This document shows, in pieces, positions 41,017 to 41,188 of a stretch of DNA of 64,000 nucleotides. The DNA is taken from the NCBI RefSeq assembly GCF_003334385.1, contig NZ_QOWN01000012.1; one strand, 5' to 3'. Below the pieces are notes generated by a model. The model saw only the letters and a program-made list of their open reading frames with translations. It made no database searches and was not told the DNA's origin. Source of the DNA: Escherichia coli. Its GTDB lineage: Bacteria; Pseudomonadota; Gammaproteobacteria; Enterobacterales; Enterobacteriaceae. The translations under genes were made by a program, and so were the position numbers. Every line of letters begins with the position of its first letter. Position 1 is the first letter of the stretch.

Positions 41017-41188
41017 ACGTGCCATTAATGTCGGATGCGGCGTGAACGCCTTATCCGACCTACGTTCGGCACCCGTAGGCCGGATAAGATGCGCCAGCAT
41101 CGCATCCGGCAATGCGCACAAGGTAACAAATGTGCCATTCATGTCAGATGCGGCGTGAACGCCTTATCTGACCTACGTTCGACACCAC
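41017..41188. repeat. REP/BIME cluster including a duplicated ~60-bp unit
   Basis: Two copies of GTGCCATT(A/C)ATGTC(G/A)GATGCGGCGTGAACGCCTTATC(C/T)GACCTACGTTCG at about 41017-41076 and 41129-41188. Confidence 0.8.

Follow-up and report, generated by a model that had tools for sequence, protein, structure and literature searches.

Evidence for an old, locally amplified and copy-variable BIME between speB and loiP of Escherichia coli, with a predicted hairpin role

Two look-alike sequences lie between the convergent genes speB and loiP of Escherichia coli, and their identity extends past the REP that each contains. An earlier note read this as a recent local duplication within a typical BIME. 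The questions raised by the locus are whether the duplication was local, whether it was recent, and what the resulting array would do. Taken as a whole, the evidence is best explained, with high probability, by an old BIME that was amplified locally in units of 113 bp, varies in copy number and would act through its hairpins.

The whole stretch of DNA analyzed (the window, 64 kb) is the reverse complement of approximately 3.06-3.12 Mb of K-12 MG1655. A repeat search returned one direct-repeat family (n = 1) of two 66-nt copies, with 58/66 positions identical and a start-to-start spacing of 113, inside a 205-bp gap measured from stop codon to stop codon (Table 1). The consensus and its three variable positions (A/C, G/A and C/T) agreed with the earlier description of two similar sequences, and the gene names were borne out by RefSeq matches and the K-12 MG1655 annotation. 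Read from the sequence, the similarity extended leftward as far as TGCGCAC (41003 and 41113), interrupted by a 3-nt indel. An inverted Z-type REP stands between the two copies. The REP core GATGCGGCGTGAACGCCTTATC occurred 7 times in the window, where shuffled sequence gave an expectation of 0, and a rigid REP pattern with 3 mismatches allowed, which was overly strict, gave 0. A 14-mer search of the window for the flanks returned the two known copies only (chance expectation ~1). Tandem Repeats Finder reported no tandem repeat in the window, presumably because fewer than two full units are present there; in expanded alleles, it reported a period of 113, with copy numbers of 3.5 (95% matches) and 2.7 (91%). 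No repeat feature was annotated at the gap in the K-12 RefSeq record, and a literature search returned no paper devoted to the locus. ORFs across the array (40997-41158, 41035-41202 and 40126-41142) were regarded as chance ORFs through palindromic repeats or antisense to speB.

Unit decomposition gave a 113-bp unit consisting of an inverted Z2-like REP, the head-to-head linker, a Y REP and the tail-to-tail linker, and nearly the whole gap is made up of ~1.9 copies of this unit in the K-12 state. Because K-12 has ~1.9 units, a 66-nt direct repeat is seen, formed by the two Y REPs and the linkers beside them; each copy comprises a Y REP, 15 nt from one linker and 17 nt from the following one. 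Each of the three REPs was no more than 6-7 edits away from the Y or Z2 consensus. The hairpin-foot tetranucleotide was present as CTAC at 41060-41063 and 41173-41176 and as GTAG at 41075-41078, and the CTAC columns were invariant across 13 distinct copies from the locus. An inverted repeat (40993-41005 and 41097-41109) underlies the REP remnant on the left; the head-to-head linker copy in the 40 nt before Y1, as read from the sequence, is diverged and has a 3-nt indel relative to 41113-41142. The right-flank string recurs as an internal linker in strain PapRG-04-4.

Table 1. Features of the speB-loiP gap (positions in the window) and alleles of the gap in other E. coli genomes (gap lengths)
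Feature	Position or gap length	Strand	Basis or carrier
speB (agmatinase) CDS; stop TAA 40987-40989	40069-40989	+	ORF list, identical RefSeq matches, K-12 b2937
Left partial unit: degenerate REP remnant GCACCAGATGCGATGC, then first head-to-head-type linker copy TGCGCACGGGTAAAACGTGCCATTAAT	40990-41029		unit decomposition
Direct-repeat copy A (linker end, Y1 and tail-to-tail linker)	41015-41080	+	repeat search, reference copy
Y-type REP no. 1 (Y1), GTCGGATGCGGCGTGAACGCCTTATCCGACCTAC	41030-41063	+	hairpin, 12 pairs
Tail-to-tail linker GTTCGGCACCC, 11 nt	41064-41074		sequence and unit decomposition
Z2-like REP, inverted; minus-strand reading GCCGGATGCGATGCTGGCGCATCTTATCCGGCCTAC	41075-41110	-	fuzzy match to Z2 consensus
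Head-to-head linker AATGCGCACAAGGTAACAAATGTGCCATTCAT, 32 nt, locus-specific	41111-41142		blastn
Direct-repeat copy B	41128-41193	+	88% identity to copy A
Y-type REP no. 2 (Y2), GTCAGATGCGGCGTGAACGCCTTATCTGACCTAC; stem pair 4-27 A-T rather than G-C	41143-41176	+	
Right flank GTTCGACACCACCAGGCT: diverged tail-to-tail linker, 18 nt up to the loiP stop codon	41177-41194		
loiP (metalloprotease) CDS; stop 41195-41197	41195-41953	-	K-12 b2936 coordinates mapped onto window
0-Y allele: single Z-like REP	gap 47 bp		L003 (E. coli 18KM2445)
1-Y allele	gap 90 bp		L001
2-Y allele, Y-Z-Y	gap 203-205 bp		K-12, L006
3-Y allele, Y-Z-Y-Z-Y	gap 318-327 bp		L008, L083
4-Y allele, Y-Z-Y-Z-Y-Z-Y	gap 429 bp		L002, L082

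The feature is an ordinary REP/BIME array, already known as a kind and behaving within published limits. Its REPs are imperfect palindromes of ~35 nt with stable hairpins and a GTAG/CTAC foot, are extragenic and occur in high copy number, and the stop codons of speB and loiP enclose the whole array. They alternate in orientation as Y(+), Z(-) and Y(+), with linkers of 11 and 32 nt between them, consistent with the typical BIME organization claimed earlier. A Y REP in tandem with a Z2 variant, and a copy number variable between strains, are features of BIME-2; the subclass is BIME-2 or atypical, as judged from architecture. BIME-2 and atypical BIMEs (Gilson, Bachellier and colleagues; PMC3333891) resemble the array in their Y/Z2-type alternation, tandem pairs, extragenic location at gene 3' ends, linkers conserved within an array and private to a locus, and strain-variable copy number. 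The Y REP of the array is a GTCGGAT...ATCCGAC variant, and the 32-nt head-to-head linker is long for the 'short' S linker. In the Z partner, the stem is CCGGAT...ATCCGG and the inner stem ATGC...GCAT, whereas Z2 REPs elsewhere in the window have C(C/T)TGAT...ATCAG(G/A) and ACGC...GCGT, a difference of two compensatory pair changes.

BIME-1 elements (RIP/RIB; Y plus Z1, with an IHF-binding L linker) are similar in that a Y REP is paired with an inverted second REP, but they are single copy, whereas the speB-loiP array is multi-copy and variable. Assignment to BIME-1 was rejected, as the partner is Z2-like (36 nt) rather than Z1, there are 1-4 Y units, and the IHF consensus WATCAANNNNTTR had 0 matches in the gap, even at one mismatch, which rules out the BIME-1 L linker. 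Elsewhere in the window, a BIME-1-like element was observed at 53761-53869, comprising Z1(+), a long tail-to-tail linker containing aaattcaatatattg and a canonical Y(-); Rfam family ES036 (RF02751) matched 53787-53829(-) within it.

To locate the extended identity, a 39-nt query covering the head-to-head linker (41108-41146) was searched by blastn, and was found in 4030 of 5426 complete E. coli genomes, at a median of 1 place per genome and a maximum of 4. The head-to-head linker is confined to the speB-loiP locus, each linker copy of the array accounting for one place. A 501-nt query, in keeping with the high copy number of REPs, had a median of 13 places per genome. Four linker matches fell on plasmid-labelled records, which may be chromosomal segments on plasmids or mislabelled replicons. 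The 5 other Y REPs in the window had unrelated flanks, none of them (0/5) sharing those of the speB-loiP copies. A scan of one genome per prokaryotic species with the exact pattern GTCRGAT...YGACCTAC, by which diverged copies would be missed, returned 96 Y-variant copies in 68 loci, all in Escherichia except one in a Citrobacter MAG. The flanks aaatgtgccattNat and gttcggcac were present at only 3 of the 68 loci, and these are the speB-loiP orthologues in E. albertii, E. whittamii and Escherichia sp. E1V33; unrelated flanks surrounded the ~90 further Escherichia copies of the variant. Other tandem arrays carried internally conserved linkers of their own (L040, 4 copies; L065, 5; L067, 3; L076, 12), from which it follows that extended identity within an array is the rule for tandem BIMEs, and that each locus has an extension sequence of its own. 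Published accounts covering BIME-2 as well as atypical BIMEs agree, in that linkers differ in length and sequence between loci, tandem copies at the same locus are well conserved, and copy number is strain-variable (Ton-Hoang et al., 2012; PMC3333891). The earlier note had overlooked that linker conservation within an array is such a published general property.

If the extended identity were a generic motif of the BIME class (one of the standard linkers S, L, s, l or r), it would be silent on local duplication, and the description of BIMEs as mosaics of REPs and a few named linker motifs (PMC3333891) speaks for that reading. It is nonetheless extremely improbable, since the linker has a per-genome median of one place and is in that literal sense not common to all BIMEs of the class, the flanks are limited to speB-loiP orthologues among the 96 Y-variant copies and absent from the other Y REPs of the window, the missing IHF consensus excludes the BIME-1 L linker, and linkers in BIME-2 as well as atypical BIMEs differ in length and sequence (PMC3333891). 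The comparison shows instead that the 113-bp unit arose, and is kept, by local tandem amplification at speB-loiP alone.

Comparison of the gap between strains, the check proposed in the earlier note, revealed a highly polymorphic locus with 0-4 Y units (Table 1). For the allele census, the last 150 nt of each gene were used as query, the span was taken as gap length, and 60 rows evenly spread over the ranked 5426 genomes were sampled. The 2-Y allele accounted for 37/60 sampled rows (~62%), followed by the 0-Y allele (3/60) and the 3-Y and 1-Y alleles (2/60 each). Four Y units were found in 2/60 rows and were probable in 5 more, in which the speB half alone was matched; one of these was verified as 4 Y. 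In the remaining class, the gene ends were >650 bp apart and split by an island or IS (9/60 sampled rows); across all genomes, this applied to 797/5426 (6223 places minus 5426 genomes). Two of the split class were checked, and a 7.6-kb dagR-PTS-dgaE-dagF island was present between speB and loiP. In the island strains E. coli O111:H- 11128 (L004/L080) and MS1718 (L084), the D-glucosaminate island (dagR, four PTS genes, dgaE and dagF) replaces the BIME, and a short palindrome, CCGACCTAC...GTAGATCGG, beside loiP is all that is left. Between speA and speB, the island strains also had an extra 732-nt CDS, with 'membrane protein' or 'hypothetical protein' as its annotation (L080, 9480-10211; L084, 1363-2094), in an interval that in K-12 is a 137-bp gap only. 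In E. coli AR_0077 (L005/L081; NZ_CP026755.1, 3060400-3062600), an IS1397-family IS3 element lies between the two genes and interrupts the one REP present in the 47-bp allele (GGATAAGAT, IS, GATGCGTCAAATCC), with GAT on both sides. Bachellier is said to have reported in 1997 that IS1397 inserts specifically into REPs. The literature also counts IS1397 among the IS elements targeting REPs. With the 0-Y allele, IS1397 or the dga island, approximately one fifth of E. coli genomes in the 60-row sample were without the Y-Z array, which is therefore dispensable.

Age was assessed from the differences between copies, which in K-12 amount to 8 of 66 positions. The first copy in E. albertii was closer to K-12 Y1 (60/66) than to Y2 (54/66), and its last copy was closer to Y2 (63/66) than to Y1 (57/66); the same first/last positional orthology was observed in Escherichia sp. 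E1V33. The orthologous arrays have 3 Y in E. albertii, Y-Z-Y-Z in E. whittamii and 2 Y in Escherichia sp. E1V33, and the differences that distinguish the K-12 copies (AAT/CAT flank, G-C vs. A-T stem pair, CACCC/CACCACC right flank) recur in E. albertii and Escherichia sp. E1V33, position by position. As first and last copies are positional orthologues, the duplication behind the K-12 copies is older than the species splits unless the segment was transferred horizontally, and under the same proviso these alignments place the origin of the array before the split of E. coli and E. albertii. A recent duplication in the K-12 lineage, in which one Y REP with its flanks was lately copied and has barely diverged, would accord with the locus-specific extended identity, and truly recent unit gains do occur at the locus in other lineages (as in L002, below). 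It is highly improbable all the same, given the divergence of the K-12 copies, the 2-Y state as majority allele, the linker in 4030 of 5426 genomes, and diagnostic differences common to E. albertii and Escherichia sp. E1V33. The earlier claim of a recent local duplication thus stands in its local tandem part, the linker being locus-specific, and fails in the word recent, which the 8 differences and the orthology between species contradict.

Old as it is, the array is still gaining and losing whole units, as its alleles show. In the 4-Y allele L002, the two inner units (Y2 and Y3) are identical (66/66), which points to a recent gain. Inner units are nearest to the first copy in L002 and nearest to the last copy in L008 and E. 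albertii; the expansions are independent, since the inner units resemble different end copies. The 1-Y allele L001 matches L006 Y1 exactly in its left part and L006 Y2 exactly in its right part, being the product of unit loss by crossover within the shared REP core. In the 3-Y allele of PapRG-04-4 (L083, NZ_CP049201.1), a 20-nt tail-to-tail linker, GTTCGACACCACCAGCACCC, consists of the K-12 terminal flank fused to CACCC; this junction, GTTCGACACCACCAG followed by CACCC, is non-homologous or microhomology-based and reflects unit addition at the loiP end. The array of E. whittamii (L054) closes with a terminal Z REP, then GTAATAAAACGC, then the loiP stop, and the 47-bp allele of E. coli 18KM2445 terminates in the nearly identical GTAATAAAATGC, which suggests that the latter allele arose when a longer array lost the sequence between Z-type REPs by deletion.

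Separate transpositions of a mobile REP doublet, REPIN-like and mobilized by TnpA(REP), might be proposed in place of tandem duplication on the spot. The array is indeed similar to REPINs and RAYT/TnpA(REP) systems in that its amplification unit is an inverted REP doublet (Bertels and Rainey, 2011, PMC3116915; Nunvar, 2010, PMC2817692), and it has GTAG/CTAC at the hairpin foot, a feature recognized by TnpA(REP). The enzyme acts on BIME DNA in vitro, an excision-reintegration model has been proposed (PMC3333891), and the non-homologous PapRG-04-4 junction would be compatible with it. However, the spacing stays at 113 bp across all alleles and species, the linkers occur nowhere else in the genome as a donor would require, and a simple crossover in a 2-Y allele yields the 1-Y allele, which leaves separate transpositions quite unlikely. 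In contrast to REPINs and RAYTs, there is no adjacent tnpA(REP), and the pattern is one of amplification in place and in tandem rather than of dispersal to new loci; as the neighbors are speB and loiP, the array is outside any REPtron. Under local tandem amplification, changes in unit number would come about by recombination or replication slippage between direct repeats, or through TnpA(REP), the REP-associated tyrosine transposase, which cleaves and recombines BIMEs in vitro (PMC3333891).

Folding was examined for each REP and for the whole gap. Each REP formed a DNA hairpin, with energies between -8.5 and -12.8 kcal/mol and z between -4.1 and -5.3 vs. shuffles, with Y1 at -9.7 kcal/mol (z = -4.1) on the + strand and -10.8 kcal/mol (z = -5.1) on the - strand, and the Z2-like REP at -12.8 and -11.3 kcal/mol (z ~ -4.6). 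RNA folds of the whole gap gave -88.3 kcal/mol (z = -5.3, +) and -95.7 kcal/mol (z = -5.0, -). The G/A and C/T variable positions proved to be the two sides of stem pair 4-27 and are compensatory, with G-C in Y1 and A-T in Y2; this pair was AU in 6 and GC in 5 of the 13 distinct copies from the locus. A hairpin inside the 32-nt linker (AATGCGCAC...GTGCCATT) was rejected as a structural element, being no better than shuffles (z = -0.85 and -1.65). A scan of 40700-41500 identified no sigma-70 promoter and no intrinsic terminator.

No Rfam family was reported for the gap at the gathering threshold. The best sub-threshold match at the locus was naRNA4 (RF02564; 41078-41173(-), 53.5 bits, E = 7e-9, gathering threshold 59.5), which is explained by the region being a Z-Y REP pair. 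Elsewhere in the window, naRNA4 scored just over its gathering score (60.9 bits) on 25332-25402(+), within a Y(-)/Z2(+)/Y(-) REP cluster at 25330-25457; this match is REP-derived and is not the REP325 locus. Rfam also reported a tRNA gene at 13839-13911(-) (68.3 bits). By its K-12 position, this tRNA gene is probably pheV, a known island integration site. A primary role of the array as the gene of a naRNA4-type small nucleoid-associated RNA is suggested by the sub-threshold match, and most REPs are reported as transcribed (PMC4550694). The score is nevertheless below threshold over what is a Z-Y REP pair, and REP325/naRNA4 itself had no measurable effect on nucleoid compaction and was described as a 3'-UTR regulator instead (bioRxiv 10.64898/2026.03.23.713779), so that an RNA gene is very unlikely here.

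A role of the array as a terminator and stabilizer is likely, on the basis of its position and predicted folds. Three stable REP hairpins would form in transcripts entering from either side, in a gap without an intrinsic terminator. These hairpins would terminate the speAB and loiP mRNAs in both directions, in a partly Rho-dependent way, and would block 3'-exonucleases, thereby stabilizing both. A bidirectional hairpin barrier is the best-supported mechanism, because both genes end at the array without an intrinsic terminator and because of the REP literature, in which REPs are reported as terminators, mRNA stabilizers, topological insulators and protein-binding sites (PMC3333891) and some stable mRNA 3' ends mapped by Term-seq coincide with BIMEs (PMC9023263). 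REP325 (yjdM-yjdN; the source of naRNA4, RF02564) is alike in its tandem Y/Z2 hairpin pairs in a 3' UTR, and differs in having 12 hairpins between tandem genes, where the speB-loiP array has 3 in K-12 between convergent genes. REP325 is reported to have a dual role, as a partly Rho-dependent terminator and as a stabilizer of upstream mRNA, and REPs between convergent genes are correlated with higher expression of both genes (bioRxiv 10.64898/2026.03.23.713779). Against a stabilizer role, genes with terminal REPs did not have longer mRNA half-lives genome-wide (bioRxiv 10.64898/2026.03.23.713779).

A stronger functional reading is that unit number (0 to 4 or more) is a heritable dial of speAB/loiP read-through and stability, and that conservation of the first and last Y copies reflects differing roles of the speB-proximal and loiP-proximal hairpins beyond ancestry. 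We consider this unlikely. Such a dial, if true, would act on both convergent transcripts, speAB (polyamine synthesis) and loiP.

The significance of the finding is mostly one of annotation, as this is one of several hundred REP/BIME loci in E. coli. Its added value is a clean allelic series at speB-loiP, with 0, 1, 2, 3 and 4 units plus IS and island alleles. The gap could serve for strain typing, and could be a ready test bed for REP arrays as bidirectional terminator-stabilizers between convergent genes.
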